Below are positions 18,841-37,917 of a stretch of DNA of 64,000 bases, one piece after another. A program made the translations under genes and the position numbers. Within the stretch, counting starts at the first letter, position 1. Every line of letters begins with the position of its first letter. Under the pieces are notes generated by a model, which saw only the letters and a list, made by a program, of their open reading frames with translations, made no database searches and was not told where the DNA came from. This DNA is from Ichthyobacteriaceae bacterium. Its GTDB lineage: Bacteria; Bacteroidota; Bacteroidia; Flavobacteriales; Ichthyobacteriaceae. The stretch covers positions 119,916 through 183,915 of the forward strand of contig CBDDCQ010000001.1 in NCBI GenBank assembly GCA_965226285.1, in the 5' to 3' direction.

Positions 18841-21666
18841 ATGATAAGAAAGGAGGATATACAAATTAGAAAGAAAACTGTTTATATAAATTATGTTGTA
18901 ATAGCGTTAATCATCGCAATTGGACAATTACAGATAATTGCATGGGCACAAGTTCCTGAAATTATCAAAAATAAACACGGTGAGAAAATAGCAAACCAAT
19001 CTACGTTGAATAAAGAAAAAAAACTACAAGCATTAAAAAATGCACCACAGCTTTATACACAAAATAATAGTACTATATATCAAAATGAAACATTAAATAA
19101 TATAGATTTTCATGTCGGTTCTATTGGTGGTGGAGCTATCCGTTTAGATGGTAAGGGACGTTTACATATTTGGCAAATTTTTAATAATCTTACTGAGTTG
19201 CCTTTGCCGGATAGTTTTTTTGCCATTCGTTGTCAAGAGAGAAATAAACCCGCAATTATTCGTCAGCTTAATACAGTAGGTCAAAAACCTTTTGTTGCGA
19301 TGCAATCAATAAAATTAGTTGGGGAATTTCCTTTTGCTACTTATCATTTTCAAGATAGTGAATTGCCTGTATCAGTTACTATGGAAGCATACAGTCCTTT
19401 TATTCCTTTGGATTTAAAAAATTCTACTTTGCCGGTGGCTATTTTTAATTTTACTATTGTTAATAATTCAAGTAAAGCACAGCAGGTTTCATTATTACAT
19501 AGTCAACAAAACGCTATTGGTTATCGCCCTGTACATGGGTATGATGGGGATAGTTGGAATAACGAATTTAATTTTGGTGAAAATTTTGGTTTAAAAAAAC
19601 ACCATTTCGTAATACAAGGAATACATTATCCACATTATGGTACTAATATCAATCAAATTAAAATTAACCCCAACTCAGTACAGACTTTACTATCTAGTCA
19701 ATTACCTGTTAAGCATCCTGATCATGCTACTTTAGCTACTGCATTATTGTCTGAACATAAAAATGTAGTCTTTACAGGTAAAAATGCTTGGCATGATATC
19801 AATCAACTATACAGTTTATGGAAAAAACACGGTGCATTTTCTAAGCAAAATTCTCGTAGTGCTCCTTCACCGAAAGGTCAAACTCATAATGTAGCTACAA
19901 ATGCACAATTTACTTTGCAAGCGAAAGCAAGCCTAAAAGTAACCGCTATCATAGCATGGCATGCCCCTAATGGATCGAATGGAGGTATTATTAATGCTAA
20001 ATGGTCTGAACCTGCTTGGGGAGGTAGAGATGTACAAGGTAAAGGTTGGGGTGGTAAGGGTAATGCTTATCAGCAATATTGGAGTAATGCTCAACAAGTA
20101 TTAAATTATGCCCAAAGACATTTAATTGAAAATGAAAACAATACCCGCAATTTTCATCGTGCTTTGTATAGCACTTCGTTGCCGTATTGGATGAAAGATC
20201 GTTTTTCTAGTCAGCTAGCGATATTGACAAGTAAAACACTATTTTGGACTGCAGATGATTATGTAGGTGGCTGGGAAGGTACTGGACCGGGTGATGGTTC
20301 TTGTGCAGGTAATTGCGGTCATGTTTGGCATTATGCTCAAAGTCATGCGAGATTATTCCCCTATTTAGCTCGTAGAATGCTCGAGCAGCAATTTTTCTAT
20401 CAAAAACCTAATGGAGCTATACCTTATCGTCAACCGGCAGGTGATGCTTCGGCAGATTGTCAAGCTGCTAGTATATTACAAGCCTACCGTGAACATTTAT
20501 TGCAAACTGATGAGCAATGGTTAAAACAATATTTTCCTGCCATTAAAAAAGCAATGAATTATTTTATCAATACCTGGGATGCCGACCGTGATGGAAGGCT
20601 TAGTGGATCTCAGCATACAACTTTAGATTGTGCTATTGGAGGTAATAGTTCTTGGATAGGTTCACTTTACGCTGCTGCACTTAAAGCGGGTAGTAAAATG
20701 GCAATGCTTTGTGGTGATAAACAAAATGCTAAACTATGGGATATATTAGCCAATAAAGCTATTCAATCACATACTCAAGAATTGTTTAATGGGGAATATT
20801 TTATTCAAAAACCACAACAGCGTTCTTTTAGAGATTACCATGACGGTTGTCTATTAGATCAAATGTTAGGTCAATGGTGGGCGTACCAATTAGGTTTAGG
20901 AATATTGTATCCACCTAAGCAATTTGTTAGTGCTATGCAATCGATATTTAAATATAATTTTCGTCCTGATTTTAAAGGTATTCGTCAAGTTCCACGCGAA
21001 TTTGTTCAAGAAGAAGATGCGGGTATGCAAATAATTACTTGGCCAAAAGGTAAAAGACCGAATGCACATACCGCTTATGCGGATGAAGTGATGAGTGGTT
21101 TTGAATATGCAACCATAGCGAATATGGTATATGCAGGATTAAAAGAACAAGCCTTTGTTTGTGCTAAGGCTATTGCAGATCGTTATGACGGAAGATTGCG
21201 ACAAGGTTACCGTGGTGCTTGGGGTAATTGGGGGTTTAGTGGTAATCCATTTGGTGATGATGAGTGTGGCAAAATGTATAGTAGAGCGTTATCCAATTGG
21301 AGTATTTTATTAGCTTATCAAGGATTTACTTATGATGGACCAAAACAAGCTATTGGTTTTATGCCAGCCTTCAAAGAAAAGAAACATCGTTCTTTTTTCA
21401 GTACTGCACAAGGTTGGGGGACTTTCCAGCAGTTGCAACAAGAAAGTAAAACTTTAGTTGAGATACAATTAGACTATGGTCAATTGAATCTTAAACAACT
21501 TAAATTAGCTGTTGACGTTCATAAAAAAATTAGTACAATTGCCGTTAAACAGCAAGGCAAGCCATTGCCTATACAATATAATCAGCAAGGTAATAGGTTA
21601 CACATTAGCTTACAAACGCAGTTAAAAGCTAACACTCGTTTAAAAATTACTATTCATTACAAATAA
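18841..21666 (+). CDS. Glycoside hydrolase family 116-like (GBA2-type beta-glucosidase/glucosylceramidase)
   Basis: 941 aa. The N-terminal part is GBA2-like (GSIGGGAIRLDGKGRLHIWQIFNN). The catalytic (alpha/alpha)6 region has GDGSCAGNCGHVWHYAQS. Confidence 0.75.
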   Translation: MIRKEDIQIRKKTVYINYVVIALIIAIGQLQIIAWAQVPEIIKNKHGEKIANQSTLNKEKKLQALKNAPQLYTQNNSTIYQNETLNNIDFHVGSIGGGAIRLDGKGRLHIWQIFNNLTELPLPDSFFAIRCQERNKPAIIRQLNTVGQKPFVAMQSIKLVGEFPFATYHFQDSELPVSVTMEAYSPFIPLDLKNSTLPVAIFNFTIVNNSSKAQQVSLLHSQQNAIGYRPVHGYDGDSWNNEFNFGENFGLKKHHFVIQGIHYPHYGTNINQIKINPNSVQTLLSSQLPVKHPDHATLATALLSEHKNVVFTGKNAWHDINQLYSLWKKHGAFSKQNSRSAPSPKGQTHNVATNAQFTLQAKASLKVTAIIAWHAPNGSNGGIINAKWSEPAWGGRDVQGKGWGGKGNAYQQYWSNAQQVLNYAQRHLIENENNTRNFHRALYSTSLPYWMKDRFSSQLAILTSKTLFWTADDYVGGWEGTGPGDGSCAGNCGHVWHYAQSHARLFPYLARRMLEQQFFYQKPNGAIPYRQPAGDASADCQAASILQAYREHLLQTDEQWLKQYFPAIKKAMNYFINTWDADRDGRLSGSQHTTLDCAIGGNSSWIGSLYAAALKAGSKMAMLCGDKQNAKLWDILANKAIQSHTQELFNGEYFIQKPQQRSFRDYHDGCLLDQMLGQWWAYQLGLGILYPPKQFVSAMQSIFKYNFRPDFKGIRQVPREFVQEEDAGMQIITWPKGKRPNAHTAYADEVMSGFEYATIANMVYAGLKEQAFVCAKAIADRYDGRLRQGYRGAWGNWGFSGNPFGDDECGKMYSRALSNWSILLAYQGFTYDGPKQAIGFMPAFKEKKHRSFFSTAQGWGTFQQLQQESKTLVEIQLDYGQLNLKQLKLAVDVHKKISTIAVKQQGKPLPIQYNQQGNRLHISLQTQLKANTRLKITIHYK

Positions 21667-21725
21667 AATCTTATACTTTAAAAGACAATTCACAACTCTT
21701 ATTTCTAACACTCATAGACAAACTT

Positions 21726-21907
21726 GTTGTAAATTGCTTTCAAAATCATATCTTTGCGGAGTATTCGCAACATAAGTAGTAGATTTTTTCAATGATAAGT
21801 TGTGAATTGCTTTCAAAATTTGTATCTTTTCAGAGTATTCGAAATCATTAATCATTATACCGTTGTAATTTGCTTTCAAAATTGTATCTTTGCAGAGTAT
21901 TCGCAAA
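21726..21907 (+). CRISPR. Degenerate 3-repeat CRISPR remnant
   Basis: Three decayed copies of the main repeat lie at 21726-21771, 21799-21845 and 21862-21907, in the same orientation. The spacers between them are 27 and 16 nt. Confidence 0.85.
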
Positions 21908-22011
21908 ATTGATAATAATAGTCAAAAAGATAAATATTTGATGGATATTTTATATTTTATTATTTCAAATGAAGATGATATTTGAAGAAAACAAAAATTT
22001 AATATATAATT

Positions 22012-23265
22012 TTAATTTTCTATAATATCCAATAGGTCTTTAGCGGATATGCTATTGTCGTATTGCATTTTGTGAGGTTCTTTTGTTTGTATTTCTTTGG
22101 GTATATTTTTTAGTAGCTTATCAAACTGCTGTGAATTTAAATTCTCTACAAAAGAGGCAAATTGATCGGATTCAGGGTTGGGTTCTATAGTTTTTCTATA
22201 TATTTTGGCAATTGATTTGAGCATGTACAAATAAGGATTTAAACTGGTAGTAGTAGAAGATTTGTCGCTATCTATCCAAGATATGGCTACTTTTTCTATA
22301 CAATTCTTGCTAATTAATTCAGATTTTAATAGAAGTTCTATATCAAATGCAAATTTTGTTTCTATTATTTGTCCTTTTGTGAGTATTTCTGTTAAGATTT
22401 CTTTTTTAAATGCTTTGAAACCACATTGGGAGTCTATTATATAATTTAGGTTTGGGATTAGTTTTTTCCAGATGAATATAAACATTTTTCCCCTATCGTT
22501 TCGGTTAGCTTTCTTTATAAGCATAGATTTTTTTTCTCTACGAGAGCCTATAGCTACTAATTTATTTTTGTTTAGTATAGGATCTATCAATAATCCTATT
22601 TGACCTAAATGTGTTGAGGTATCAGCATCAGTATATATATATATTAGTATATGATTTTTATCTTTACTATTTGTAATTGCGTGCCATAAGCCATATATTA
22701 TGGATCCTCCTTTTTGGCTTTGTTTTGTGCTATGCAATCCTTTGAAAATTTCTAATTTGTTTTCTATAGCTTCTTGCAAGAAAATAACCTTAACCTTATC
22801 ATTCCAATTATTTTCTTTTATTATATCTTTAGCTATTTTACCACTATTTTCTGGGCAGCCATCATCTACCAATATTATCTCCCAACTAAAGTTAGGATTA
22901 TTTTTGAAAAGCCAGTTTATTTGATGCATTTTTTCATTTAAAAAATCTTCTCCATGTGGATGTTCTTGGCTTGTTTTTATCCTGTTATGTTCTTTGTATA
23001 AGGCAATTATTATAGGAATTTTTATGGGTTTGGGGTATTTGTTTACTATATGTTTTGATTTGGCAATTTTTATAGCAGTTAATATAAATACAAGGGAATG
23101 ATCTTTTTTATTTATCAAGTAATCTTCTATTTTTTCTATATTAGAGTAGCTTTTGTAATGATCCAATATTTTTGTTGCTATTAGAGTTATTAGGGTAGAA
23201 TGTTGTTTGCTTGTAAGGTCTATGTATTTAGGACATAGTTTTATTAGCGTATTTATATTTTCCAT
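22012..23265 (-). CDS. Family 2 glycosyltransferase, ALG5/dolichyl-phosphate glucosyltransferase-like
   Basis: Motifs ILVDDGCPENS, YTDADTST, AIGSRRE, IIDSQCGFKAF and FAFDIELL. The start is set at ATG 23265 (MENINTL), because the longer ORF to 23352 runs into the first CRISPR repeat. Confidence 0.8.
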   Translation of the reverse strand: MENINTLIKLCPKYIDLTSKQHSTLITLIATKILDHYKSYSNIEKIEDYLINKKDHSLVFILTAIKIAKSKHIVNKYPKPIKIPIIIALYKEHNRIKTSQEHPHGEDFLNEKMHQINWLFKNNPNFSWEIILVDDGCPENSGKIAKDIIKENNWNDKVKVIFLQEAIENKLEIFKGLHSTKQSQKGGSIIYGLWHAITNSKDKNHILIYIYTDADTSTHLGQIGLLIDPILNKNKLVAIGSRREKKSMLIKKANRNDRGKMFIFIWKKLIPNLNYIIDSQCGFKAFKKEILTEILTKGQIIETKFAFDIELLLKSELISKNCIEKVAISWIDSDKSSTTTSLNPYLYMLKSIAKIYRKTIEPNPESDQFASFVENLNSQQFDKLLKNIPKEIQTKEPHKMQYDNSISAKDLLDIIEN

Positions 23266-23335
23266 AAGTATTAAATATTTTTTTGATAAATTAATTATGG
23301 AGTATTGCAAATTTACAACAAAATAATTTAAATAA

Positions 23336-26300
23336 GTTGTAAATTGCTTCAAAATTTGTATCTTTGCGGAGTATTCGCAACGTTACTTTTGTGTTGTTCG
23401 GCTGAAGTTTAGTTGTAAATTGCTTCAAAATTTGTATCTTTGCGGAGTATTCGCAACGATGGCATAATGATAAAGTTTGCATCCCTGGTTGTAAATTGCT
23501 TCAAAATTTGTATCTTTGCGGAGTATTCGCAACAAATTCGGAACATTATTTATCATGATATGGTTGTAAATTGCTTCAAAATTTGTATCTTTGCGGAGTA
23601 TTCGCAACCAAAGGAGGGTAAAGGAGCTAAGGGTTTAAGTTGTAAATTGCTTCAAAATTTGTATCTTTGCGGAGTATTCGCAACCTGAAAATAATGACAT
23701 CTTAATTACATAGTTGTAAATTGCTTCAAAATTTGTATCTTTGCGGAGTATTCGCAACTTATTATCGGCATTGTATTTTATATTACCGGTTGTAAATTGC
23801 TTCAAAATTTGTATCTTTGCGGAGTATTCGCAACAGTTTTCTATTGTTTCTAAGAACGGGGCAGTTGTAAATTGCTTCAAAATTTGTATCTTTGCGGAGT
23901 ATTCGCAACCTATTTCTTTACCTCTAAAACCTGCCTTTAGTTGTAAATTGCTTCAAAATTTGTATCTTTGCGGAGTATTCGCAACATAGTAATTATACTT
24001 ATGTTTGCCAAATCAGTTGTAAATTGCTTCAAAATTTGTATCTTTGCGGAGTATTCGCAACTTATATTGAATGAATACTACTACTTGATAGTTGTAAATT
24101 GCTTCAAAATTTGTATCTTTGCGGAGTATTCGCAACTACTGAATATCCCTAATAAAATACTACTATGTTGTAAATTGCTTCAAAATTTGTATCTTTGCGG
24201 AGTATTCGCAACTCCGTATATGTGGTATGATTTCTTAGTGTAGTTGTAAATTGCTTCAAAATTTGTATCTTTGCGGAGTATTCGCAACTGCCTTTGTAAA
24301 GGGCAAAGCAAGTTGGGAGTTGTAAATTGCTTCAAAATTTGTATCTTTGCGGAGTATTCGCAACTGCCTTTGTAAAGGGCAAAGCAAGTTGGGAGTTGTA
24401 AATTGCTTCAAAATTTGTATCTTTGCGGAGTATTCGCAACTTTCAGTTAGGATTTGGAAAACTGCGAAAAGTTGTAAATTGCTTCAAAATTTGTATCTTT
24501 GCGGAGTATTCGCAACTAATACGAAAAAGGTAGTAACTTCTGCGGGTTGTAAATTGCTTCAAAATTTGTATCTTTGCGGAGTATTCGCAACAATTCGCAT
24601 GGTTGGGATGATGTCGTAATCGTTGTAAATTGCTTCAAAATTTGTATCTTTGCGGAGTATTCGCAACTTCGGTAAATTTATGTAAATAGTTATAGCAGTT
24701 GTAAATTGCTTCAAAATTTGTATCTTTGCGGAGTATTCGCAACCCAAGTCAAAAGCATATCAACTACGGGCTAGTTGTAAATTGCTTCAAAATTTGTATC
24801 TTTGCGGAGTATTCGCAACTGTAAATTGTTCAAACGTGCCATCTACATTGTTGTAAATTGCTTCAAAATTTGTATCTTTGCGGAGTATTCGCAACAAATT
24901 ATGGAAACATATAAAGATGCAAATGGTTGTAAATTGCTTCAAAATTTGTATCTTTGCGGAGTATTCGCAACAAGAAGGTTTTAGAGAATGAAATATCTGC
25001 GGTTGTAAATTGCTTCAAAATTTGTATCTTTGCGGAGTATTCGCAACTAACCAAACAGGAGATAGAAGAATTAACTAGTTGTAAATTGCTTCAAAATTTG
25101 TATCTTTGCGGAGTATTCGCAACAAGAAGTTAGGAAAACTACCTATGACGCATGTTGTAAATTGCTTCAAAATTTGTATCTTTGCGGAGTATTCGCAACG
25201 CAAGCAAGCAGGCAAGCAAGCAGGCAAGCGTTGTAAATTGCTTCAAAATTTGTATCTTTGCGGAGTATTCGCAACTAAAATACCTAATCAAAAAACACCT
25301 ATAGGTTGTAAATTGCTTCAAAATTTGTATCTTTGCGGAGTATTCGCAACGAAAGAAAGTAAGTAATTTGAGGAGAGGGGGTTGTAAATTGCTTCAAAAT
25401 TTGTATCTTTGCGGAGTATTCGCAACTTTTTAATAAAATATGAAAGCAACATTAATGTTGTAAATTGCTTCAAAATTTGTATCTTTGCGGAGTATTCGCA
25501 ACTTAATATTGTTTGCCTTCTACCTCCTGTAAGTTGTAAATTGCTTCAAAATTTGTATCTTTGCGGAGTATTCGCAACATATATTTGAGATAGTACATGC
25601 AACGGGGTGTTGTAAATTGCTTCAAAATTTGTATCTTTGCGGAGTATTCGCAACAAATATGAGCCACAGAAACGCCCCTTAAAGGTTGTAAATTGCTTCA
25701 AAATTTGTATCTTTGCGGAGTATTCGCAACCAGTCTTAATATTAACTCTTAATGTATCAGTAGTTGTAAATTGCTTCAAAATTTGTATCTTTGCGGAGTA
25801 TTCGCAACACACACCTTATTCTTACCTTCCAAGAAAGTGTTGTAAATTGCTTCAAAATTTGTATCTTTGCGGAGTATTCGCAAACAATGGTGATTTTAGG
25901 AGTGCTGAGAGTATAGTTGTAAATTGCTTCAAAATTTGTATCTTTGCGGAGTATTCGCAACCTGAGCACTCTTAAACTGCATATTATGCGTGTTGTAAAT
26001 TGCTTCAAAATTTGTATCTTTGCGGAGTATTCGCAACTACAGGAGTAGCAATTATAGTCTTATCATTGTTGTAAATTGCTTCAAAATTTGTATCTTTGCG
26101 GAGTATTCGCAACACTAGTCGTTAATATCTGTTACCGTGTATGGTTGTAAATTGCTTCAAAATTTGTATCTTTGCGGAGTATTCGCAACATCGTATGGAA
26201 AATCCTGTTTTAGCACTTAGCGTTGTAAATTGCTTCAAAATTTGTATCTTTGCGGAGTATTCGCAACTATTTTGATATTATTTCTTCTTGTGAAATGTTG

Positions 26301-29300
26301 TAAATTGCTTCAAAATTTGTATCTTTGCGGAGTATTCGCAACCTTCATTGATTAAATAATAAAATATCTAAAGTTGTAAATTGCTTCAAAATTTGTATCT
26401 TTGCGGAGTATTCGCAACAAATTACAATAATCCTGTTCAAAAACTACGTTGTAAATTGCTTCAAAATTTGTATCTTTGCGGAGTATTCGCAACTCTTTAT
26501 AATCTAAAGGTATAGGGGGCTCAGGTTGTAAATTGCTTCAAAATTTGTATCTTTGCGGAGTATTCGCAACTTTTAGAGAAAAACACAAATGATTATGGTA
26601 GTTGTAAATTGCTTCAAAATTTGTATCTTTGCGGAGTATTCGCAACTGAGTGTGCGCTTTGTTACGAGAGTTTAGAGTTGTAAATTGCTTCAAAATTTGT
26701 ATCTTTGCGGAGTATTCGCAACATTATTCATATTTAAATATTTTTTTAATTAGTTGTAAATTGCTTCAAAATTTGTATCTTTGCGGAGTATTCGCAACTG
26801 TACCCAAGTATTGCATCAAAAGAACGAGTTGTAAATTGCTTCAAAATTTGTATCTTTGCGGAGTATTCGCAACTACCATTTATAATTGGTGAAAGGTCAT
26901 TCAGTTGTAAATTGCTTCAAAATTTGTATCTTTGCGGAGTATTCGCAACAGTAAGACTACTGCTATCACCAACCTCACTGTTGTAAATTGCTTCAAAATT
27001 TGTATCTTTGCGGAGTATTCGCAACTTGCAGAAGGAATTTAATTTTATAAACGCAGTTGTAAATTGCTTCAAAATTTGTATCTTTGCGGAGTATTCGCAA
27101 CCTTTAAGCCAATTATGATATTTATGAGAAAGTTGTAAATTGCTTCAAAATTTGTATCTTTGCGGAGTATTCGCAACTTATTAATCATCATTTTATGTCA
27201 TCATAGGGTTGTAAATTGCTTCAAAATTTGTATCTTTGCGGAGTATTCGCAACAAAAACAACAGAGAGAAGGTGGTGTTGATTGTTGTAAATTGCTTCAA
27301 AATTTGTATCTTTGCGGAGTATTCGCAACTCACTATAATGAACAGTGACACCATATTTAGTTGTAAATTGCTTCAAAATTTGTATCTTTGCGGAGTATTC
27401 GCAACATATAAGAGGCGATTTAATGTTATCGTATAGTTGTAAATTGCTTCAAAATTTGTATCTTTGCGGAGTATTCGCAACAAACAGGGATATTTGGATA
27501 TATGGTTTAGGGTTGTAAATTGCTTCAAAATTTGTATCTTTGCGGAGTATTCGCAACTGATTTTTTAAAATAAAATGACAAATGTAGTTGTAAATTGCTT
27601 CAAAATTTGTATCTTTGCGGAGTATTCGCAACAAAAATTATATGAACTTATTTTTGAAATAAGTTGTAAATTGCTTCAAAATTTGTATCTTTGCGGAGTA
27701 TTCGCAACTTTATTGATAGAAGAATAATGTACACTTTAGTTGTAAATTGCTTCAAAATTTGTATCTTTGCGGAGTATTCGCAACACAATTTTAGATATGG
27801 TGATAGAATATTAGGTTGTAAATTGCTTCAAAATTTGTATCTTTGCGGAGTATTCGCAACTAAGAAGTCAACAAATACAAGTGATTAAGGTTGTAAATTG
27901 CTTCAAAATTTGTATCTTTGCGGAGTATTCGCAACAATAATAAAAGACAACACCAAAGATACAGGTTGTAAATTGCTTCAAAATTTGTATCTTTGCGGAG
28001 TATTCGCAACCACCATTTAATAGTTTAAATTCATCTCTTAGTTGTAAATTGCTTCAAAATTTGTATCTTTGCGGAGTATTCGCAACATTTAAAATTATAA
28101 TATTGATGTAATTTAGTTGTAAATTGCTTCAAAATTTGTATCTTTGCGGAGTATTCGCAACTTATTTTACATAAGACGGTGACGCAATGCCTATAGGTTG
28201 TAAATTGCTTCAAAATTTGTATCTTTGCGGAGTATTCGCAACAATATGTTATTTCAAAATGTGGTTATCAAAAATTAGGTTGTAAATTGCTTCAAAATTT
28301 GTATCTTTGCGGAGTATTCGCAACAGAGGCAATTACATCGTTCTTAGGGACTATTTTAGTTGTAAATTGCTTCAAAATTTGTATCTTTGCGGAGTATTCG
28401 CAACATATGATAGTTCATTAGTAACTGAATCCGCCTATTAGTTGTAAATTGCTTCAAAATTTGTATCTTTGCGGAGTATTCGCAACTAATATCTTAGCAA
28501 AGATAAGATACTTGTATTGAGGTTGTAAATTGCTTCAAAATTTGTATCTTTGCGGAGTATTCGCAACAAATAAGGCTCGTAATTATCCCTTGCCTACTGT
28601 TAGTTGTAAATTGCTTCAAAATTTGTATCTTTGCGGAGTATTCGCAACATGGAAGTGGCATCATCAGTGATTAATAAAACCATTGTTGTAAATTGCTTCA
28701 AAATTTGTATCTTTGCGGAGTATTCGCAACAGGGCTTTGGAGATATAATTTAGCATAGTACAGGGTTGTAAATTGCTTCAAAATTTGTATCTTTGCGGAG
28801 TATTCGCAACTATCCGTGTAGCTTTCTTTATAGAAGCATCTTAGAGTTGTAAATTGCTTCAAAATTTGTATCTTTGCGGAGTATTCGCAACAATAACTAT
28901 GCAACAACTAGAGGAGGTCTAGCCTTTGTTGTAAATTGCTTCAAAATTTGTATCTTTGCGGAGTATTCGCAACAACTCAAGGAAATACCCAATTTAGAAA
29001 CTATAGGTACTGTTGTAAATTGCTTCAAAATTTGTATCTTTGCGGAGTATTCGCAACGTTTGCTTCAAATGAATATTTAGAAGATATGTTGTAAATTGCT
29101 TCAAAATTTGTATCTTTGCGGAGTATTCGCAACAATGAGGAAAATAAGGGGCGCGAAAAGTGTGTTGTAAATTGCTTCAAAATTTGTATCTTTGCGGAGT
29201 ATTCGCAACATCATAAGAAATAAATACAGCAGTAGATGGTTGTAAATTGCTTCAAAATTTGTATCTTTGCGGAGTATTCGCAACCCGCCTCCTCAGCAGT

Positions 29301-31871
29301 AACCCCAACCTTTGGTTGTAAATTGCTTCAAAATTTGTATCTTTGCGGAGTATTCGCAACAAAAGTATAATCACGATAAAACAGGAGAAGGTTGTAAATT
29401 GCTTCAAAATTTGTATCTTTGCGGAGTATTCGCAACTATATAAAGCACTTGAAGTAAACGATGCAGTTGTAAATTGCTTCAAAATTTGTATCTTTGCGGA
29501 GTATTCGCAACAATGAGGAGAATAAGGGGGGCGAAAAGTGTGTTGTAAATTGCTTCAAAATTTGTATCTTTGCGGAGTATTCGCAACCATGGCAATGATT
29601 ATAACTCGTTCTTGTATGTTGTAAATTGCTTCAAAATTTGTATCTTTGCGGAGTATTCGCAACATTACTCTTCAATTCGTGTTTCTCATCTATGTTGTAA
29701 ATTGCTTCAAAATTTGTATCTTTGCGGAGTATTCGCAACACGGGATTATAAAAATATCTCGTAAAATGAGTTGTAAATTGCTTCAAAATTTGTATCTTTG
29801 CGGAGTATTCGCAACTCCTAACAGTATTAATATCAGGGAATTGTAGTTGTAAATTGCTTCAAAATTTGTATCTTTGCGGAGTATTCGCAACATACTGCCC
29901 AAATTAAAAATAGTGCGGTAAGTTGTAAATTGCTTCAAAATTTGTATCTTTGCGGAGTATTCGCAACAAAAATATGTATTTAATGATGAATACGGGGTTG
30001 TAAATTGCTTCAAAATTTGTATCTTTGCGGAGTATTCGCAACGAATACCGACCGTAAATAACTATTTCATAGTTGTAAATTGCTTCAAAATTTGTATCTT
30101 TGCGGAGTATTCGCAACTGCTTGATTACGATTACTGGTTTTCTCTAAGTTGTAAATTGCTTCAAAATTTGTATCTTTGCGGAGTATTCGCAACATTATAT
30201 GACATACCAGATAAGGTAACGTGTTGTAAATTGCTTCAAAATTTGTATCTTTGCGGAGTATTCGCAACATAATCGGGCAACTTTTGGGAAACCAGTGGAA
30301 GTTGTAAATTGCTTCAAAATTTGTATCTTTGCGGAGTATTCGCAACTACTTATTTTTAACAATGCAAGCTTTTTTATGGAGTTGTAAATTGCTTCAAAAT
30401 TTGTATCTTTGCGGAGTATTCGCAACTATTAGCGACAATTTGGCAAAATTGGTATGAGTTGTAAATTGCTTCAAAATTTGTATCTTTGCGGAGTATTCGC
30501 AACCTTCCTATAGATATATTCTTGAGTAACATGATGTTGTAAATTGCTTCAAAATTTGTATCTTTGCGGAGTATTCGCAACTTATATGTTAAATTTCAGG
30601 ACAAATATGAAGTTGTAAATTGCTTCAAAATTTGTATCTTTGCGGAGTATTCGCAACACGTTGAGTAAAATATATAAGTATGAGAAGTTGTAAATTGCTT
30701 CAAAATTTGTATCTTTGCGGAGTATTCGCAACTAAAGAGGACTGCAAATTAATTATAGGAAGTTGTAAATTGCTTCAAAATTTGTATCTTTGCGGAGTAT
30801 TCGCAACGAGCAGGAGCAGGAGCAGGAGCAGGAGGAGGTTGTAAATTGCTTCAAAATTTGTATCTTTGCGGAGTATTCGCAACAAGATGATTTTAAAATA
30901 GATAAACCAATAGGTTGTAAATTGCTTCAAAATTTGTATCTTTGCGGAGTATTCGCAACGAAGATACTATAATTACCATTTTGCTTGTTGAAGTTGTAAA
31001 TTGCTTCAAAATTTGTATCTTTGCGGAGTATTCGCAACTTGAATGAATTGAAGGATGGTCGTAAAGGGGTTGTAAATTGCTTCAAAATTTGTATCTTTGC
31101 GGAGTATTCGCAACAGATTGGATATTTAGGGTCCCCATTTTCAAGTTGTAAATTGCTTCAAAATTTGTATCTTTGCGGAGTATTCGCAACTAATGTTTTT
31201 TTTATTTACATGGGTCCATGGTTGTAAATTGCTTCAAAATTTGTATCTTTGCGGAGTATTCGCAACTGTACCTATTACTTTGATAAACTATTAATAGTTG
31301 TAAATTGCTTCAAAATTTGTATCTTTGCGGAGTATTCGCAACCATTATTATTAACGCTTTCAATAGTTTACAGTTGTAAATTGCTTCAAAATTTGTATCT
31401 TTGCGGAGTATTCGCAACTATTTAAGTTATAAGATGTTAATACTTTAGTTGTAAATTGCTTCAAAATTTGTATCTTTGCGGAGTATTCGCAACTTATCAT
31501 TTCTCGTCTTTGGATGTTATGAGTTGTAAATTGCTTCAAAATTTGTATCTTTGCGGAGTATTCGCAACTATATATCTTATATATAGGTACAGGGAGGGTT
31601 GTAAATTGCTTCAAAATTTGTATCTTTGCGGAGTATTCGCAACGAAGAAACCCCTAAACTACACCAATACTAGTTGTAAATTGCTTCAAAATTTGTATCT
31701 TTGCGGAGTATTCGCAACAAAGAGGGAAGTAGCAATCTTAACTGAAAGGGTTGTAAATTGCTTCAAAATTTGTATCTTTGCGGAGTATTCGCAACAAAAC
31801 TAAATCAACAGTAGTTTTACGGGAGGTTGTAAATTGCTTCAAAATTTGTATCTTTGCGGAGTATTCGCAAC
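23336..31871 (+). CRISPR. Type II-C CRISPR array, 112 repeats / 111 spacers
   Basis: The 46-nt repeat is GTTGTAAATTGCTTCAAAATTTGTATCTTTGCGGAGTATTCGCAAC. The hand count was checked arithmetically: 112 x 46 plus the summed spacers equals 8536 nt. Spacers are 28-38 nt with a mode of 30. The plus-strand sense is inferred from tracrRNA complementarity. Confidence 0.98.
23337..23366 (+). promoter_or_regulatory. Repeat-embedded promoter motif (example in repeat 1; present in every canonical repeat)
   Basis: Repeat positions 2-4 are TTG, followed by exactly 19 nt, then positions 24-31 TAtcTTTG. This matches the Bacteroidetes -33/-7 consensus. Confidence 0.45.
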
Positions 31872-31931
31872 AGATAGTGGTTTAAGTTTTTGATATTCAA
31901 TAGTTTAAAACTTGAATTACAATTATAGAAA

Positions 31932-31956
31932 ACAGCCTTTAAAGGCTGTTTTTTTA
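31932..31956. terminator. Hairpin terminator between the array and cas2
   Basis: ACAGCCTTT/AAAGGCTGT stem followed by a T7 run on the plus strand. A shorter T run follows on the minus strand, so it may act in both directions. Confidence 0.65.
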
Positions 31957-31970
31957 TTTAATTATTCCTT

Positions 31971-32327
<357 letters not shown>

Positions 32328-33215
32328 TTATATAAATTTTGGATATAGGATTTTTCTAGATACTCCTTTAAAGCATTCATACAGTGAATTTGTAGTTCTA
32401 CTAGAGGCTATCATCAGTGGACTCTGTTTATTTCCGATCATAACATCCATGGTAATAATTTGTAATAGATGTTTTTTATGTTCTATAGTAAGTTCTTCAT
32501 AATTTTGATTATCTACAAAATCACAAACCAATCTATCTACAAATGGACGGTAGGGTTCCATAATATCATCAGCTAAGCAATAGGCATTATATTTATTTTT
32601 ATGAAATATTCCCAATGTAGGAAGTAAACCACTACTCACTAAAGAACGAGCAATTAAAGCTCTAAGTATAGCATATCCATAGTTGAGTAAGCCATTGGGC
32701 ATTTCTTCATTTGGTCCTCTTATAAATTCCATTTTAAAGATTTGCTTCCAATAGTAAACAGCTGATCTGGCTTCTTGATTCTTAGGATCTCCACTGGTAA
32801 TTCTCTCTGCCCAATACAGCATATTGTCGTGAGGAATACCTCTTTGTTTTAGAAGTTCTGCTTGGTTTTTAATTTTTGCTACTACAGTTTGTTTCCATAA
32901 ATTTTTTTTAAGGGTTTTAGTAGCAGAGATTTGATATTTGAATCTTTCACTTTGTTCAGTATGCGCATCTAATGGCATAAGTAATCCAATAGGATGGTGA
33001 CTTGCGTCACAATTGATAAGGGCTACATTGTTTTGAGTGATTTTTTCTAATAGTTTATTGGTAATGGTAATTTGAGGATGTTCTAAAACAATAAAACCAA
33101 TATCTTCTATGGGGACTTGTTTTTTGACTCCATCATTGGGATAGTTTACTACTAATTGCTCATTTTGGGTACTCAAGTAAGCAGGGTTACCAAAAAATAA
33201 AGTCTTTTTTACCAT
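32328..33215 (-). CDS. cas1: CRISPR-associated endonuclease Cas1 (type II)
   Basis: 295 aa with typical type II Cas1 segments: LNYGYAILRA, LPTLGIFHKNKYNAYCLADDIMEPYRP. Confidence 0.96.
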   Translation of the reverse strand: MVKKTLFFGNPAYLSTQNEQLVVNYPNDGVKKQVPIEDIGFIVLEHPQITITNKLLEKITQNNVALINCDASHHPIGLLMPLDAHTEQSERFKYQISATKTLKKNLWKQTVVAKIKNQAELLKQRGIPHDNMLYWAERITSGDPKNQEARSAVYYWKQIFKMEFIRGPNEEMPNGLLNYGYAILRALIARSLVSSGLLPTLGIFHKNKYNAYCLADDIMEPYRPFVDRLVCDFVDNQNYEELTIEHKKHLLQIITMDVMIGNKQSPLMIASSRTTNSLYECFKGVSRKILYPKFI

Positions 33216-33276: not shown

Positions 33277-36200
33277 TCAAACTTTTGATGACTCAGAGTA
33301 TTTCACATTTTTGTGATGGTTGTTTACTTCTACAATTTTTCCTAATCGGTTTATCCGTACCTTTATTGCTTTAGTTAAAGGATGTTTATCTTTGTTTTTT
33401 ATATTAGGCAGACTCTTTACTACATAATAACAAATTCCTTTTAAATCTTCATTAGTATGATGGTTTTTTCCACTAACTACTCTTTCTCTATCTACATTAG
33501 TTTCTAAGTGGCTTCTAAAATAGTAATCCTTAGAACTAATTTTTTGCACTCTAAATAAATGTTTGCTGATTTCTTGAAAATTATTAGGATCCGTAAGGTC
33601 AATCTCTTGGGGATTAAATTCATCGTTACCAAATATAAAATAGTCATTCTGAGCTATACTAAATAAAAACTTCCAACCCTTATCTCGATTTTTTATTTTA
33701 TCAATAATAGGTAAACCTTGTTTTTTTCTTTCTACAGTTTCCCAAAAACTTACTACTTCCTCCTGCCAATTTCCTTTTTCATCTTCATAAATTGCTATAT
33801 GTTGATTATTACGTGTTTGTACAAAGTCAGTCTGAATGATTTCTCCTTTGGTATTTTTCCTTTTGATAGGCTTGGCAGATGTAATTCCTGTTATAGAAAC
33901 TTTTTTAATTTGAATATTTTTTTCTTTGTTTAGGTAAATAGGGTTTTCTTCTAAGTTAGAGAGTGCTTTTTTCTTATCTCCATTGTACTGTTCAATTCTA
34001 TTTTGGAGGATTTTTTGGATGCCTTTATCTATTATTTTTTCAATCTTAAGGTCTGGTTTAACTTCTTTTCTAATGGTATAGATTTCTTTAAAAGTTACTA
34101 ATTTTACTTTTTCAGGAAGTGTCTTACCATTACAATCAAGGACAGGATTTTTAGTAAAGCTATTTTTACCCGAAAAGGCTTTTTTAAAGTTATTATTAAA
34201 TTCTTGTAATCTATTTATAAGGGCATTTTTATGCTTAAAGTTGGCTACAGAATTTATTTTATGTAAATCGAGTGTAGCATCTATTTTTTTTTGTTTAGTT
34301 TGATATCGTTTTATTTTTCTATACAAAGTATCTTTGTGTAAGGGACCTCTTGGAGTCAATACTACCTGTTTCTTAAACTTATTTTTATCTTTAATTTTAA
34401 TTTTATTAATATTTTTGGTTGCTGTTTTATTTTTAGCTTTAAATGATATTAACATATTTTCTAAAACTGATTTAGCTTCTCCTCTAAAATTTGGGAAGGG
34501 CTTCTTAAATCTTAGTTTATTTTTATGGTCTCGGTAAAGTTCTTTTTGTTCTATACCATAAATGCTACTAGTTTTGTTACTTTTGGCTTTCAAGTTATTT
34601 AAGTATTGTATATGGCTAGGTTTTGTAAATGCTACAATGAGTGCGTCCATAGCATGGTGTCTGTGGTCGTCTCGTTTTGCCCAGCCTTTTATTTTGTAAA
34701 TAGTATCTCCTTTTTCTCCTTTTTCAGTATTGGTAAGTCCTATCCTTTCATACTTGTCAAAATTAATTTCTTTCATAATATCTATCAATCCCCAGTCTTC
34801 TCTTAATCTATCAGTAACTTTTCCAGTAGTTGTATGCACTTTTTTACAAATATTACCTAATATTTGAATGGTTTTTTTAGCTATATACTGTGAATCTCTT
34901 AAGTCTCGTTCTATAAAATCTTCAGGTATTTCAGAAGATTTCATTCGTAATTTACTTCGTTTGGTTTTACTTATCAACTCTTTTTTATAAAATTCGTCAA
35001 CCCTATCTTTATACTGTTCAAACTCTGTTTCATTGTATTTATCTTTGAGAAAATCATAGGCAGTTTGGTCACTTTTATGCTGGTTTAATTTTCTTTCACA
35101 GAGTATTTTGTTAGAAAAAGAATCATCAAACAATTTTGCTGTAGGTATAATATGGTCAATATTGTATTTATTGGTAAATAGAGCGGATACTTTTATGGGT
35201 TTTCCTGTATAAATGGATATTCCTTTAGTCTCTTCCCAAAGTTTATAGCGAATAATATCATTTCGTGTAACCTTTTCAATCTTATATTCACTTTGTAATT
35301 TTTTTCTTATTTCTTCATTTTTTTTAGTAGCATCTCTAATATGAGCGATCATCTTTTTCCTATCTTCTTTACTCTGTTTAAGTTCTCTCGCAAGTTCTAC
35401 TCTTATTTCATCGGGCTTTCCGTATGTTTTTATAATTTCATTTACAGTGTTGATAGTTTGATTTAAGATTTTTTCTATTACAGGGGTTCTAAGCGCATTC
35501 TTGGGTAGTAAATCTAAAGTGTCTTTTATAGGTTTACTTTGTATTTGTTTTTTATTGAGCACGTGAGAATGATTGTATCCTGCTAATTGACATGCCTTAT
35601 CGTATGGGTATCCCTCTTTTAGATGAGGCAAAATTTTTCTAATAGCTCTAGCACTGAGATTCCCATAATCAGAATCTAACCTTATTTGAGTGAGTATTTT
35701 ACCATGAGATTTTTTAAATCCAAATTTTTCGTGAAGTTTTTGGATTAACTTTTCATTGTTTTCAATAGAATAAATGAGATGCCATAATTGAAAATAAGAT
35801 TGTTTATCAAAATCATTACCCCTTAGGTTACTATCAAAGTTTAAAACATCAGTATTGATATCTAAACTTTTAAATATTTTTGTTATAGTGTTTCTAATCT
35901 CATCAGCACTCATAGAGAAATCAAACTCATAGCCTTCTACATTTGAAATAGCTTGAAAAGCCTGATATAATAAATAATTTGTATGGTTTCCTTCTAAGTC
36001 TTCAAAGTTCAATTTCCAATTTCTCAGGTTGTATCCTAAAATTTTGAATATCTCTCTTTTAGAAAGACGGAATTTTAAATTGGCATGTTCAAAGAGAACT
36101 TGTTTAAGTTCCAAATCTAATTTTAGTTCTGTTTTATCTTTAACATTAGTAAAGGTGAGATCATTAATATTTTGCCAAATTTTAAATTCTTGAAATAGAG

Positions 36201-37566
36201 GAGAAGATTTGGAACATGCTTTATGGTGCTTTTCAAATTGACAGTCTGAAATAAGATGCTTACATGATTTTAAAGGTCTTTGATAAAAAATGATAGTATC
36301 TTTAATTTCTTTTTCTAATTTAGAATCTAGTTCATGATAGTGTTTCTTCTGTTCTTGCCAAATGGCATCGAATTCATTGATATAATCTTTTCGGTAGAAT
36401 ATTTGATTTCTTAGATTGGTATGTGGATTGCGTTCTATTTGTTCATATAAGTATTGCCCTATAGTTTTACCCTTAAAATGCAATTTTTTACTTCTATCAC
36501 TGATGATGCCTAAGTATTTACTCGCTTGATTGATTTGGCTATTAATTTCTATTAAAATGTAAGCTACTTGTGTAATGTCAAGTTGTTTGTTTAAAGCATC
36601 TGTACGGTAACTGTACTGTTGCAATTGTTTTTCATCACTTTTTCCTTTGGGTTCTGCAATATATTTTGTAGGTAAAATAATGTTTAGGCTGTTCTTAAAG
36701 AATTTCTCTATTTCATTTAATCTTACTTGTTGATTCTCAAAATAAGTTTCTTTGGCTTTGGCGGTTAAAATTTTGGGGTATTTATCTTTTAATTCCTCCC
36801 ATTTTTGAAGAGCGTTATTTTTAAATTCTTGTACAAAAATAGACCTAAAAGCACTCGCAGTTTGTGTCCTATTTAATCCGTATAAGTCTTTTTTGAGTTT
36901 ATCGGTCAATATATTGGGATAAAACTCTTGTTGAAAATCGAATATAATATCAAATTCCCTTTGCAGATCAGATTTATAAAATACAGGAACTTCATAAGTT
37001 TTCTTTTCTTTTTTTCGTTCCTGTATCTTTTGTAATACATATTGTCCTATGGTTATATTTTGATCTTTTAATATTTTAGCAATTTCAATATTATCTATAG
37101 CTTGTCCTAAATCTTCGGAATTATCTTTCTTTCTATTACTTTTATATCCTCGTTTCTTGTTAATTGAAAGTAGTACTCTTACAAAATCTACCTTAGATAA
37201 TTGCTCATTGGGGGCTTTAGCACGAAGTTTTAGTAATTGATGAGTAGTTTTTTTTCCTTCTTCTCTAAGTATGTGATCGTTATTTATAAAACCTATCTTT
37301 TTAAAGGTATTTATAATACGTTGCCTTCTTAATTTGTAACGGAAATTATTTCTTCTTGAACTTCTTTTTAAAGTTCTTTCAGCATTGATGGTAATGCTAT
37401 TGCCTTTTTCAAAGTTATTCTTTTCATCAATAGTAAGAGACACTACTCTTACACCACCATCAATAATTTTAGAATTTTCTCTATTTTCATGCTCTTCTAC
37501 AACTGACCATCCAATAGTAGTTGTTCCCAAATCTAATCCGAGTATTTTTTTATGCACACTATCCAT
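33277..37566 (-). CDS. cas9: Type II-C Cas9 (cas9-1, intact)
   Basis: 1429 aa. RuvC-I ILGLDLGTTTIGWSVV, RuvC-II IRVELARE, HNH YNIDHIIP...NKILCERKLNQHKSDQ, RuvC-III HHAMDALIVAF. No csn2 or cas4 is present in the locus. Confidence 0.97.
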   Translation of the reverse strand: MDSVHKKILGLDLGTTTIGWSVVEEHENRENSKIIDGGVRVVSLTIDEKNNFEKGNSITINAERTLKRSSRRNNFRYKLRRQRIINTFKKIGFINNDHILREEGKKTTHQLLKLRAKAPNEQLSKVDFVRVLLSINKKRGYKSNRKKDNSEDLGQAIDNIEIAKILKDQNITIGQYVLQKIQERKKEKKTYEVPVFYKSDLQREFDIIFDFQQEFYPNILTDKLKKDLYGLNRTQTASAFRSIFVQEFKNNALQKWEELKDKYPKILTAKAKETYFENQQVRLNEIEKFFKNSLNIILPTKYIAEPKGKSDEKQLQQYSYRTDALNKQLDITQVAYILIEINSQINQASKYLGIISDRSKKLHFKGKTIGQYLYEQIERNPHTNLRNQIFYRKDYINEFDAIWQEQKKHYHELDSKLEKEIKDTIIFYQRPLKSCKHLISDCQFEKHHKACSKSSPLFQEFKIWQNINDLTFTNVKDKTELKLDLELKQVLFEHANLKFRLSKREIFKILGYNLRNWKLNFEDLEGNHTNYLLYQAFQAISNVEGYEFDFSMSADEIRNTITKIFKSLDINTDVLNFDSNLRGNDFDKQSYFQLWHLIYSIENNEKLIQKLHEKFGFKKSHGKILTQIRLDSDYGNLSARAIRKILPHLKEGYPYDKACQLAGYNHSHVLNKKQIQSKPIKDTLDLLPKNALRTPVIEKILNQTINTVNEIIKTYGKPDEIRVELARELKQSKEDRKKMIAHIRDATKKNEEIRKKLQSEYKIEKVTRNDIIRYKLWEETKGISIYTGKPIKVSALFTNKYNIDHIIPTAKLFDDSFSNKILCERKLNQHKSDQTAYDFLKDKYNETEFEQYKDRVDEFYKKELISKTKRSKLRMKSSEIPEDFIERDLRDSQYIAKKTIQILGNICKKVHTTTGKVTDRLREDWGLIDIMKEINFDKYERIGLTNTEKGEKGDTIYKIKGWAKRDDHRHHAMDALIVAFTKPSHIQYLNNLKAKSNKTSSIYGIEQKELYRDHKNKLRFKKPFPNFRGEAKSVLENMLISFKAKNKTATKNINKIKIKDKNKFKKQVVLTPRGPLHKDTLYRKIKRYQTKQKKIDATLDLHKINSVANFKHKNALINRLQEFNNNFKKAFSGKNSFTKNPVLDCNGKTLPEKVKLVTFKEIYTIRKEVKPDLKIEKIIDKGIQKILQNRIEQYNGDKKKALSNLEENPIYLNKEKNIQIKKVSITGITSAKPIKRKNTKGEIIQTDFVQTRNNQHIAIYEDEKGNWQEEVVSFWETVERKKQGLPIIDKIKNRDKGWKFLFSIAQNDYFIFGNDEFNPQEIDLTDPNNFQEISKHLFRVQKISSKDYYFRSHLETNVDRERVVSGKNHHTNEDLKGICYYVVKSLPNIKNKDKHPLTKAIKVRINRLGKIVEVNNHHKNVKYSESSKV

Positions 37567-37579
37567 ATTATAGCAAAAT

Positions 37580-37666
37580 AATAAAAAAGCGACAAATGAA
37601 ATTTGCCGCTTTCAAATGTTTTCACAACGGAATAATCCTTATTGTGAATTGCTTCAAAATTTCAAC
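37580..37666 (-). ncRNA. tracrRNA copy A
   Basis: The minus-strand RNA is UUGAAAUUUUGAAGCAAUUCACAAUAAGGAUUAUUCCGUUGUG...GCGGCAAAUUUCAUUUGUCGCUUUUUU. Its 22-nt anti-repeat is complementary to repeat positions 1-22 (one mismatch, one GU pair). It has a nexus-like hairpin and a terminator hairpin plus U6. A -7 box TAtaTTTG lies at 37670-37677. Confidence 0.85.
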
Positions 37667-37839: not shown

Positions 37840-37917
37840 ATAAAAAAGCGACAAATTTGCCGCTTTAAATGTTTTCACAACGGAATAATCCTTATTGTGA
37901 ATTGCTTCAAAATTTCA
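37840..37917 (-). ncRNA. tracrRNA copy B
   Basis: Same anti-repeat and nexus as copy A. The terminator loop is shortened (GCGGCAAAUUUGUCGC plus a U run). A -7 box lies at 37922-37929. Confidence 0.8.

Follow-up and report, generated by a model that had tools for sequence, protein, structure and literature searches.

The type II-C CRISPR-Cas9 system with 47-bp repeats described in Flavobacteriales takes up new spacers adjacent to cas2 (PMC6008519). With uptake on that side, the far end of the array is its oldest part, and the first repeat of type II-C arrays has been reported to be the oldest one (PMC12080349). Mutated 'extra' repeats at the oldest end were surveyed by Feussner et al. 2025, who counted a mutated repeat only at a distance of 20-45 nt from the array's last repeat (PMC12080349). 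Repeats away from cas genes are also known as orphan or degenerate arrays and as solitary repeat units, the latter described mainly on viruses and proviruses (PMC8616872). In the window, by which we mean the whole 64,000-nt stretch of DNA that was analysed, a minus-strand glycosyltransferase (GT) gene has a fossil of three decayed repeat units on one side and a large, live CRISPR-Cas9 array on the other, which faces the gene with what by the published polarity would be its oldest end. A protein gene in this position was not part of the described flavobacterial system (PMC6008519).

In most other respects the live array resembles that system, with the order cas9-cas1-cas2 and then the array, a tracrRNA upstream of cas9, 46-47-nt repeats of the form GTTG...GCAAC, spacers of about 30 nt and, presumably, uptake on the cas2 side (PMC6008519). 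It occupies 23336-31871 on the plus strand, where 112 repeats of 46 nt enclose 111 spacers; all repeats but one are identical. The number of repeats, the unmutated state of the presumably oldest repeat and a duplicated tracrRNA-cas9 unit are peculiar to the present locus in this comparison. A leader-side region (31872-31970, strandless) with a bidirectional terminator hairpin, AAAACAGCCTTTAAAGGCTGTTTTTTT, separates the array from three minus-strand genes, namely cas2 (31971-32324; TIGR01573, E 4e-20), cas1 of the type II NMENI class (32328-33215; TIGR03639, E 8e-92) and cas9-1, which encodes 1429 aa (33277-37566; TIGR01865, E 1e-160). The presence of cas9, cas1 and cas2 without csn2 or cas4, as judged from NCBIfam and Pfam models, and of a tracrRNA anti-repeat against the 5' part of the repeat places the system in type II-C. 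No further cas ORF was found between cas2 and the array or beyond the array.

Three tracrRNA anti-repeats lie on the minus strand at 37642-37662, 37895-37915 and 42804-42822, and each has a nexus-like segment and then a terminator downstream on that strand. They match the 46-nt repeat form with TTC, at 20 of 21 positions in two copies and at 18 of 19 in the third. From their orientation, the crRNAs are read on the plus strand toward cas2, and by analogy with the published polarity of type II-C arrays (PMC6008519, PMC12080349) position 23336 would be the oldest end, cas-distal and transcriptionally upstream. One guide in the live array matches the cell's own nth gene perfectly. When positions 24000-31900, most of the array, were compared with 50,697 phage records for inference of the PAM, only chance-level matches were obtained.

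The three fossil units are all on the plus strand. Repeat Ra (21726-21771, 46 nt; nhmmer E 9.7e-15) shows 4 differences from the main repeat and only 2 from units 8 and 10 of a second decayed array elsewhere in the genome, hereafter fossil array 2, with which it has the TTTC form and a CATATC variant in common. It is followed by a 27-nt spacer, S_ab (21772-21798), and then by Rb (21799-21845, 47 nt; E 9e-12), the most diverged unit, which has 6 differences from the main repeat, at least 5 from every other copy and a -7 box weakened to TATCTTTT. A shortened spacer of 15-16 nt, (C)ATTAATCATTATACC (21846-21861), leads to Rc (21862-21907, 46 nt; E 2.7e-14), which carries the GTTGTAATTTGC variant and has 5 differences from the main repeat. 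A solo repeat on contig 6 (C6:164601-164647) has the A8T variant of Rc and, in front of it, the same 15 nt as Rc. Altogether the three units match the resident repeat at 41-43 of 46-47 positions, with genome-wide nhmmer E values of 1e-14 to 9e-12 that are far beyond chance.

These relationships extend to a whole family of fossils in the genome. Fossil array 2 (C1:200605-201546) has 13 units and lies 59 kb away, and solo repeats were located at C1:95911, C6:73081, C6:164601 and C6:1158954, in addition to partial copies, all confirmed by nhmmer. The three repeats have their nearest kin among these other fossils, in fossil array 2 and in the solo repeat on contig 6. The 15-mer ATTAATCATTATACC precedes the solo repeat C6:164601 as well, and in fossil array 2 longer forms, ending in ATTATACA, stand before units 9-13. 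The junction between TTAATCATTATAC and the repeat occurs seven times genome-wide, each time directly before a fossil repeat. The terminal spacer-repeat junction is common to these arrays and solo copies, and they are therefore descended from a single old array.

Like the reviewed orphan arrays and solitary repeat units (PMC8616872), the fossils are without cas genes, have resident-like but heterogeneous repeats and include duplicated or self-matching spacers; they differ from solitary units in that the common junction reveals common descent. No phage genes were seen near the fossil copies in a first look at the flanking ORFs. The fossil units are of the TTTC type. The TTC type, with one base fewer, is that of the live array and of all three tracrRNAs. 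Both types were almost absent from 300 genomes scanned across the order, which gave one TTTC-type match. With the Rfam model CRISPR-DR50, Ra scored 34.7 bits and the main repeat 28.6, and Rc was likewise above the live repeat. Mainly from these scores, and from the one outgroup match, we infer that the TTTC form is ancestral. This kinship comes close to assigning the repeats at 21726-21907 to an independent and older array, a relation that the original prediction had named as fatal to its own reading, although it falls short of proof.

The gene itself (22012-23265, minus strand; 417 aa) is a single, intact ORF with its ATG at 23265 and its stop codon at 22012-22014. On the left, the fossil repeats are adjoined by a plus-strand GH116 glycoside hydrolase gene (18841-21666; Pfam Glyco_hydr_116N and GH116 catalytic domains, E 1e-45 and 1e-40). 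On the right, a strandless gap of 70 nt (23266-23335) extends from the start codon to repeat 1, and the first repeat-like letters appear after 33 nt. Homologues of the gene elsewhere have upstream spacings of at least 100 nt (105 nt in locus L010 and 160-470 nt in L014-L016), and the short upstream region here hints at a breakpoint near the start of the gene. The gap includes a 9-15-nt inverted match, at 23311-23319, to the start of repeat 1, and the hairpin formed by the two has a minimum free energy of -18.1 kcal/mol (z -2.56), which was equalled in 7 of 200 shuffles.

Long arrays are difficult to assemble, and the array in the assembly of a sister strain contains inverted blocks; the gene could thus have been mis-joined into a repeat-rich region. 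We consider such an artefact scarcely conceivable. The second assembly (L020/L102) is independent and has an identical layout with flanks of 99.98% identity, while its upstream cas9 differs. The region 21600-23400 is base-identical in the two assemblies, with unique flanks on both sides, and the junctions fall in unique sequence outside the repeats. The spacer differences of the sister strain at the cas2 end resemble errors of low-coverage long reads.

The bracketing of the gene by CRISPR repeats in one orientation, as first noticed, is thus genuine: the three degenerate units on the left are true relatives of the array repeat by nhmmer, the canonical repeat 1 on the right starts at 23336 and the sister strain is alike. 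What did not hold was the supposed 3' half of a repeat just before repeat 1 (GGAGTATT-GCAA, 23299-23310). Its local-alignment score of 10 was reached by 50% of composition-matched AT-rich 70-nt windows of this genome (P about 0.5), and the nhmmer repeat search of the genome did not report it. No significant remnant of a repeat or spacer was present at either junction, the left flank showing only a weak inverted match (P 0.04).

The encoded protein was recognized by Pfam Glycos_transf_2 (PF00535) with 33.4 bits against a cutoff of 23.3. Its AlphaFold model (pLDDT 87) was matched by Foldseek with probability 1.00 to dolichyl-phosphate mannose synthase (DPMS), ArnC and GpgS, and also to the GT-A fold of MpgS, the best matches being 5mlz, 8vxh and 4ddz. 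The motifs VDDGCP, YTDAD and DSQCGFKAF, together with the modelled fold, agree with a core like that of ALG5 and DPM1. D134-D135 and D213-A214-D215 do not vary within the family alignment, and a Rossmann-like GT-A fold is combined with a DxD motif for metal and nucleotide-sugar binding. Such DxD-type motifs (DDG and DAD) and the fold are also found in DPM1, ALG5, ArnC and GtrB and in the soluble enzymes GpgS and MpgS, and the Q-C-G-F-K motif is one that polyprenyl-phosphate glycosyltransferases typically have. In contrast to DPM1, ALG5, ArnC and GtrB, the protein lacks transmembrane helices, for no stretch of 19 residues has a mean Kyte-Doolittle value above 1.05, and by the same measure the C-terminal transmembrane or interface helices of polyprenyl-phosphate glycosyltransferases were not found. 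Another difference from these enzymes is a family-specific four-helix domain at the N-terminus and a helical domain at the C-terminus. Searches of PDB sequences with the single sequence and with a profile gave no match.

The homologues number roughly 970. Identity is 50-65% in at least 120 of them, with alignments that cover 94-100% of the length, apart from one truncated sequence at 89%. The family, of about 410 aa, has a mean column identity of 69%, with the catalytic motifs intact and conserved columns at both termini. Hence the original description as a single minus-strand GT2 gene with an ALG5-like core was borne out by the ORF, the Pfam match and the modelled fold, but the terminal extensions that it took to be unique are conserved throughout the family. 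The gene is single-copy, conserved and flavobacterial, and a contig search with the protein as query returned only distant archaeal and CPR glycosyltransferases.

It was suggested at first that this gene might be an inserted cassette, perhaps a defence gene that modifies a phage receptor. We examined its base composition and codon usage and found both to be native: GC3 falls at the 42nd percentile and the codon-use likelihood at the 57th. Neither marks of mobility nor a target-site duplication were found, and the PADLOC defence library gave no match. In 45 homologous loci (286 kb) there was no CRISPR array, no homologue of cas9, cas1 or cas2 and no repeat-like sequence, and the five loci for which neighbouring genes were listed represented five different neighbourhoods. 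A CRISPR-like periodic repeat 4 kb from one homologue (L041) was a plain tandem repeat of 45-46 bp without spacers. Neither the cassette nor the defence gene is supported by these results. The protein is probably an ordinary, vertically inherited and functional enzyme, predicted to be a soluble GT-A member of a family found throughout the Flavobacteriia. The gene has no functional tie to CRISPR and adjoins the array by happenstance.

We also compared synteny among relatives, but none was close enough to give the ancestral order. The sole near relative is the sister strain, which has the same layout. One genome of the same family (G001) had no GT gene, GH116 gene or cas9, and BamA and cyoE are unlinked in it. 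The nearest homologues of the GT and GH116 genes, from sample ERZ25071801, are on separate contigs in unrelated contexts; there the GT gene is flanked by UvrD and pyrE, which are 214 kb apart in the present genome. The contexts of more distant GT homologues were unrelated as well.

How did the native gene come to lie between the two sets of repeats? We hold with moderate confidence that the three repeats are what an earlier generation of the array left as a fossil, and that a rearrangement placed them next to the gene. They would be the collapsed remnant of an older generation of the same repeat family. The spacer S_ab was taken from the cell's own comM-like gene, for it has an exact match of 22/22 nt to a comM/YifB-like ORF (C6:163652-163673), inside the coding region and not in the promoter, and only 930 bp from the solo repeat C6:164601. 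Self-targeting is a classic cause of array silencing and decay, and it may have silenced the old array. The order of fossil, gene and live array would then be the scar of recombination or rearrangement among dispersed repeats at a CRISPR-prone site, and the live array would have grown afterwards from the cas2 side.

The closeness of the two sets of repeats runs against this reading, and so does the hint of a breakpoint given by the short upstream region of the gene. The fossil is separated by only 1.4 kb from the old end of the array and has its orientation; for about 9 fossil loci spread over 2.6 Mb, the chance of such proximity is about 1%. Some historical link between the fossil and the live array is needed to account for it, and the simplest source of such a link is a once-continuous array.

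This is what the original prediction proposed: an array once continuous from Ra, Rb and Rc to repeat 1, into which a 1.4-kb piece with the GT gene was inserted or captured near the old end, after which the severed units decayed. The fossil does lie beyond the old end (PMC6008519), where decayed repeats are expected, and its repeats are related and in the same orientation; that much of the proposal stands. Since repeats are copied from the cas2-proximal one, a one-base deletion there would produce a young TTC block beside old TTTC units, as is seen here. The very short upstream region of the gene would also fit, and the dispersed repeats could supply the homology for excision of the gene and its re-integration between two of them. 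However, a split array should consist of one generation or show a gradient of decay, with split remnants at the junctions. The differences instead change abruptly from 0 in repeat 1 to 4-6 in the fossil units, the spacers of which have 27 and 15-16 nt, and the putative repeat fragment at the right junction is no better than chance. Moreover, the nearest kin of Ra and Rc lie at the separate fossil loci described above, and two other fossil loci end with the same terminal spacer-repeat unit and have no live array after it, which suggests that the old array already ended there. The gene likewise lacks the traits of a cassette. On this balance we regard the interruption of a continuous array as unlikely, though it deserves serious consideration.

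The mutated 'extra' repeats of other type II-C arrays offer a parallel, in that decay affects the cas-distal, transcriptionally upstream end and some mutations fall in the part that pairs with the tracrRNA (PMC12080349). Here, however, a gene and a distance of 1.4 kb separate the decayed units from the array, and the repeat that corresponds to the extra one is free of mutations.

Another explanation is that the mini-array was retained for a function, its plus-strand transcripts serving as crRNA-like guides or running antisense across the GT gene into repeat 1. Regulatory and decoy mini-arrays and solitary repeat units have been described (reviewed in PMC8616872). The Bacteroidetes -7 box (TATCTTTG), from which plus-strand transcripts could start, is intact in Ra, Rc and nearly all fossil copies, but its preservation among copies of shared descent is no evidence of selection, and the box of Rb is damaged. 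The 5' part of Rb pairs with the tracrRNA anti-repeat save for one bulged base, and S_ab-Rb would give a seed-complete guide to comM; yet the tracrRNA-pairing positions of the repeats vary freely, and a full 22-nt match with a PAM, if present, would mean cleavage and not regulation. A retained function therefore appears improbable to us. A scan for sigma-70 promoters and terminators was uninformative, the host belonging to the Bacteroidota.

A bolder form of this idea is that the fossil repeats, each with a putative promoter inside the repeat, are not inert, that S_ab-Rb could give a guide loadable on Cas9 and that the type II-C system may steer comM and nth, and with them competence and DNA repair, through self-guides, the mini-array beside the GT gene being a retained regulator. 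We consider this very improbable. The 3' flanks of the two self-matches are unlike each other (TTTACAACTC at comM and GATATATTTG at nth). If the cell tolerates or uses these guides, they would represent control of endogenous genes by a type II-C system.

The locus gives reason for caution, because CRISPR repeats on both sides of a gene can mimic cargo embedded in an array. In this genome the gene encodes a native enzyme of housekeeping type, and the repeats beyond it are probably part of an older family of fossils that was scattered independently. The locus is also a worked example of the ageing of a type II-C array, in which repeat and tracrRNA probably co-evolved by a one-base deletion, self-derived spacers are present and old units persist as fossils in several places. 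Given closer relatives, it could show how dispersed repeats drive rearrangements around CRISPR loci.

Three degenerate CRISPR repeats lie on the + strand to the left of the glycosyltransferase gene, in the orientation of the live array: Ra (21726-21771), Rb (21799-21845) and Rc (21862-21907), with 27 nt between Ra and Rb and 15-16 nt between Rb and Rc. They stood well above chance in an nhmmer search of the whole genome (E 1e-14 to 9e-12), and the original prediction was right in treating them as real. The left neighbour of Ra is a GH116 hydrolase gene that ends at 21666. Between these fossils and repeat 1 of the live array (the copy at 23336) there is, as predicted, a single minus-strand gene, an intact ORF of 417 aa (22012-23265), which is 104 nt from Rc and has its start codon 70 nt from repeat 1. 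A contig of a second assembly (L020/L102) represents a sister strain, as its flanks are 99.98% identical over 11.4 kb while the cas9 upstream differs. The order of fossil, gene and array is base for base identical in this separate assembly, so that an assembly artefact was ruled out.

A partial repeat 3' half, also proposed before repeat 1 (GGAGTATT-GCAA, 23299-23310), was at chance level. Its local-alignment score of 10 was equalled by half of the composition-matched 70-nt windows of the genome (18% when both strands were summed), and it was not among the genome-wide nhmmer matches. Within the same letters, 10 nt match the start of repeat 1 in inverted orientation. The 9-15 nt directly before repeat 1 pair with its first bases (23311-23350), and the resulting hairpin (-18.1 kcal/mol, z -2.56) is of marginal significance. 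In type II-A systems, leader-repeat hairpins suppress extraneous crRNA, and the marginal hairpin here is reminiscent of them. The 42 nt after Rc (21909-21950) show a weak alignment to the repeat's reverse complement (score 14) and may be a heavily decayed head-to-head copy. The 14-mer TATACTTTAAAAGA occurs at 46 genome sites (e.g. 21672-21685, 51503-51516 and 55230-55243), often serially with a spacing of 3-4 kb, and is probably a regulatory or 5'-UTR motif common to a gene family.

The live array (23336-31871, 112 repeats of 46 nt, 111 of them identical) is part of a standard Flavobacteriales type II-C system, with cas2 (31971-32324), cas1 (32328-33215) and cas9-1 (33277-37566) on the minus strand and a second, frameshifted cas9 (38547-42704) upstream of cas9-1. 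There are three tracrRNA genes, whose anti-repeats (at 37642, 37895 and 42804) copy 19-21 nt of repeat positions 2-22 on the + strand; on the minus strand, a nexus-like segment and a terminator lie downstream of each anti-repeat. Because of their orientation, the crRNA is read on the + strand, left to right toward cas2. The locus resembles that of Riemerella anatipestifer, also of the Flavobacteriales, in which the tracrRNA lies upstream of cas9, the repeats are 47 bp and the spacers 30 bp (PMC6008519). In that species, spacer-repeat additions between cas2 and the adjoining repeat have been proven experimentally (PMC6008519), and in type II-C systems 60% of arrays carry a mutated first repeat, which is the oldest one (PMC12080349). 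If this polarity is applied here, 23336 would be the oldest end, and decayed repeats beyond it would be on the expected side. This favours the original prediction, in which the gene was inserted or captured within a once-continuous array and the severed part decayed. The closeness of the fossil to the live array, their common orientation and the unusually short gap between start codon and repeat 1 agree with such a split.

Eleven successive spacers of the live array (64-74, 28162-29011) are 34-38 nt long; nearly all the others are 28-32 nt, and two further ones 33-34 nt. This suggests that spacer length was for a time set by another ruler, possibly tied to the second cas9. One repeat-spacer unit has been duplicated in tandem, so that spacers 13 and 14 (24289-24318, 24365-24394) have the same sequence. 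Spacer 42 (26494-26524) matches the genome itself at 31/31 positions (contig 5, 439531-439561) within an endonuclease III (nth)-like ORF, with GATATATTTG as the 3' flank. A missing PAM at the target, inactive Cas9 interference or tolerance of the match by the cell are all possible.

Nothing in the gene points to mobility or to an origin outside this genome, which speaks against its insertion into an array. Its GC3 (42nd percentile of the genome's long ORFs) and synonymous-codon likelihood (57th percentile) are ordinary, so that the captured cassette found no backing in base composition and codon usage. Neighbouring genes were called at five homologous loci and were different at each (UvrD and pyrE; a Y1 transposase and a VWA gene; ThrRS; PASTA/RluD with Ddl). 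No CRISPR array, cas9, cas1, cas2 or repeat-like sequence was found across 45 homologous loci (286 kb); the periodic repeat at one of them, L041, is a plain tandem repeat. PADLOC gave no match for the glycosyltransferase, and the speculation that it is a defence gene is therefore left without support.

The Pfam GT2 match was weak yet above threshold (33.4 bits). A protein search returned 973 relatives, the best 120 of which had 50-65% identity, 94-100% query coverage (one truncated sequence excepted) and lengths of 403-430 aa (one excepted). In an alignment of 22 relatives the mean column identity was 69%, the catalytic motifs VDDGCP, YTDAD, GSRRE, RNxRGK and D(S/T)QCG(F/Y)K were invariant, and conserved columns reached both termini, so the N- and C-terminal extensions are a family property and not, as had been claimed, unique. 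A two-residue insertion, I208-Y209 (22627-22632; LIYIYTDAD), directly before the catalytic DAD motif was present in both strains and in 0/21 aligned homologues. No PDB sequence match was obtained with either the single sequence or the profile. An AlphaFold model built from the family alignment was confident (pLDDT 87, pTM 0.89), and its core matched dolichyl-phosphate mannose synthase (DPMS), ArnC, GtrB and the soluble GpgS, MpgS and MGS with a Foldseek probability of 1.00 (target TM-scores 0.53-0.66 for the top DPMS, ArnC and GpgS matches); the predicted ALG5-like core thus holds as a resemblance. In the model, this core would be accompanied at the N-terminus by a four-helix domain specific to the family and at the C-terminus by a helical domain. 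No hydrophobic stretch was found in the protein (maximum 19-residue Kyte-Doolittle mean 1.05), and thus it looks like a soluble enzyme.

The fossil repeats have kin elsewhere in the genome. Array 2, a cas-less array of 13 heterogeneous decayed units of 46-47 nt (contig 1, 200605-201546), lies on the minus strand, opposite to the fossils studied here, 59 kb to their right and outside the window; its spacers are internally duplicated, one being in three copies. Full-length solo repeats occur at C1:95911, C6:73081, C6:164601 and C6:1158954 and partial copies at C5:485166, C5:332846 and C2:59018, spread across four contigs. One scattered copy directly follows a DNA methyltransferase-like gene, and a second gene of this type has another copy about 1.1 kb away; the copy at C5:485166 precedes an ORF start by 25 nt, a promoter-like position. 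Every fossil copy but C1:95911 has GCTTTCAAAAT, the TTTC form. In the live array and in each of the three tracrRNA anti-repeats this is GCTTCAAAAT, one base shorter; the deletion therefore co-evolved in the live system. Rfam CRISPR-DR50 scores (Ra 34.7, Rc 33.9, live repeat 28.6 bits) fit an older TTTC form, and an order-wide scan for repeat forms added next to nothing on this question. An array split by the gene could also yield this pattern, since the cas2-proximal repeat is the template for new ones, and a deletion in it would leave the old TTTC units at the opposite end.

Units 8 and 10 of array 2 have TTTCAAAATCATATC in common with Ra and 2 differences from it, against 4 between Ra and the live repeat. 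Rc and the C6:164601 solo repeat share the A8T variant and the preceding 15 nt (ATTAATCATTATACC), and all seven genome occurrences of TTAATCATTATAC are directly before a fossil repeat (five in array 2, one before Rc, one before the C6 solo). The shared variants and this junction show that the three loci descend from one old array, and each of them terminates in the same spacer-repeat unit. The live array, after the gene, is present at only one of the three. The spacer between Ra and Rb (21772-21798) has a 22/22 nt match within a comM/YifB-like ORF (C6:163652-163673; about 1e-4 expected by composition), 930 bp from the C6 solo repeat (C6:164601-164647). On this match the spacer is self-derived, and the position of its target suggests that the old array was once located at, or took spacers beside, that site. 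The AT-rich fossil "spacers" are similar to an (ATTAATC)n microsatellite common in this genome's intergenic DNA. Tracts like it occur at many intergenic sites (e.g. C1:112255-112315, C1:233477-233800, C6:164159-164532 and C6:992594-993317), the last spacers of array 2 are of this kind, and four fossil repeat loci are within or beside such tracts.

Kin that end in the same unit count against a split array, and so does the lack of a decay gradient, with 0 differences at repeat 1 and then 5 in Rc, 6 in Rb and 4 in Ra. Neither junction holds a significant repeat or spacer remnant; the inverted match after Rc is weak (P 0.04). We consider the split unlikely. Retention of the fossil for a regulatory role appears very improbable. 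We see an even chance that the fossil belongs to an earlier array generation and was brought or left beside a native gene through rearrangement among dispersed repeat copies, which would have produced the present gene order. The remaining probability was given to no particular reading. No relative close enough to show the ancestral order was found in the collections searched.

Orphan arrays and solitary repeat units have already been described, as have oldest repeats that have degenerated and self-targeting spacers next to decayed repeats (PMC12080349, PMC8616872). What is unusual in this organism is that a conserved chromosomal gene sits precisely where a perfect oldest repeat gives way to decayed units, and that one array has left so many scattered fossils in a single 2.6-Mb genome.
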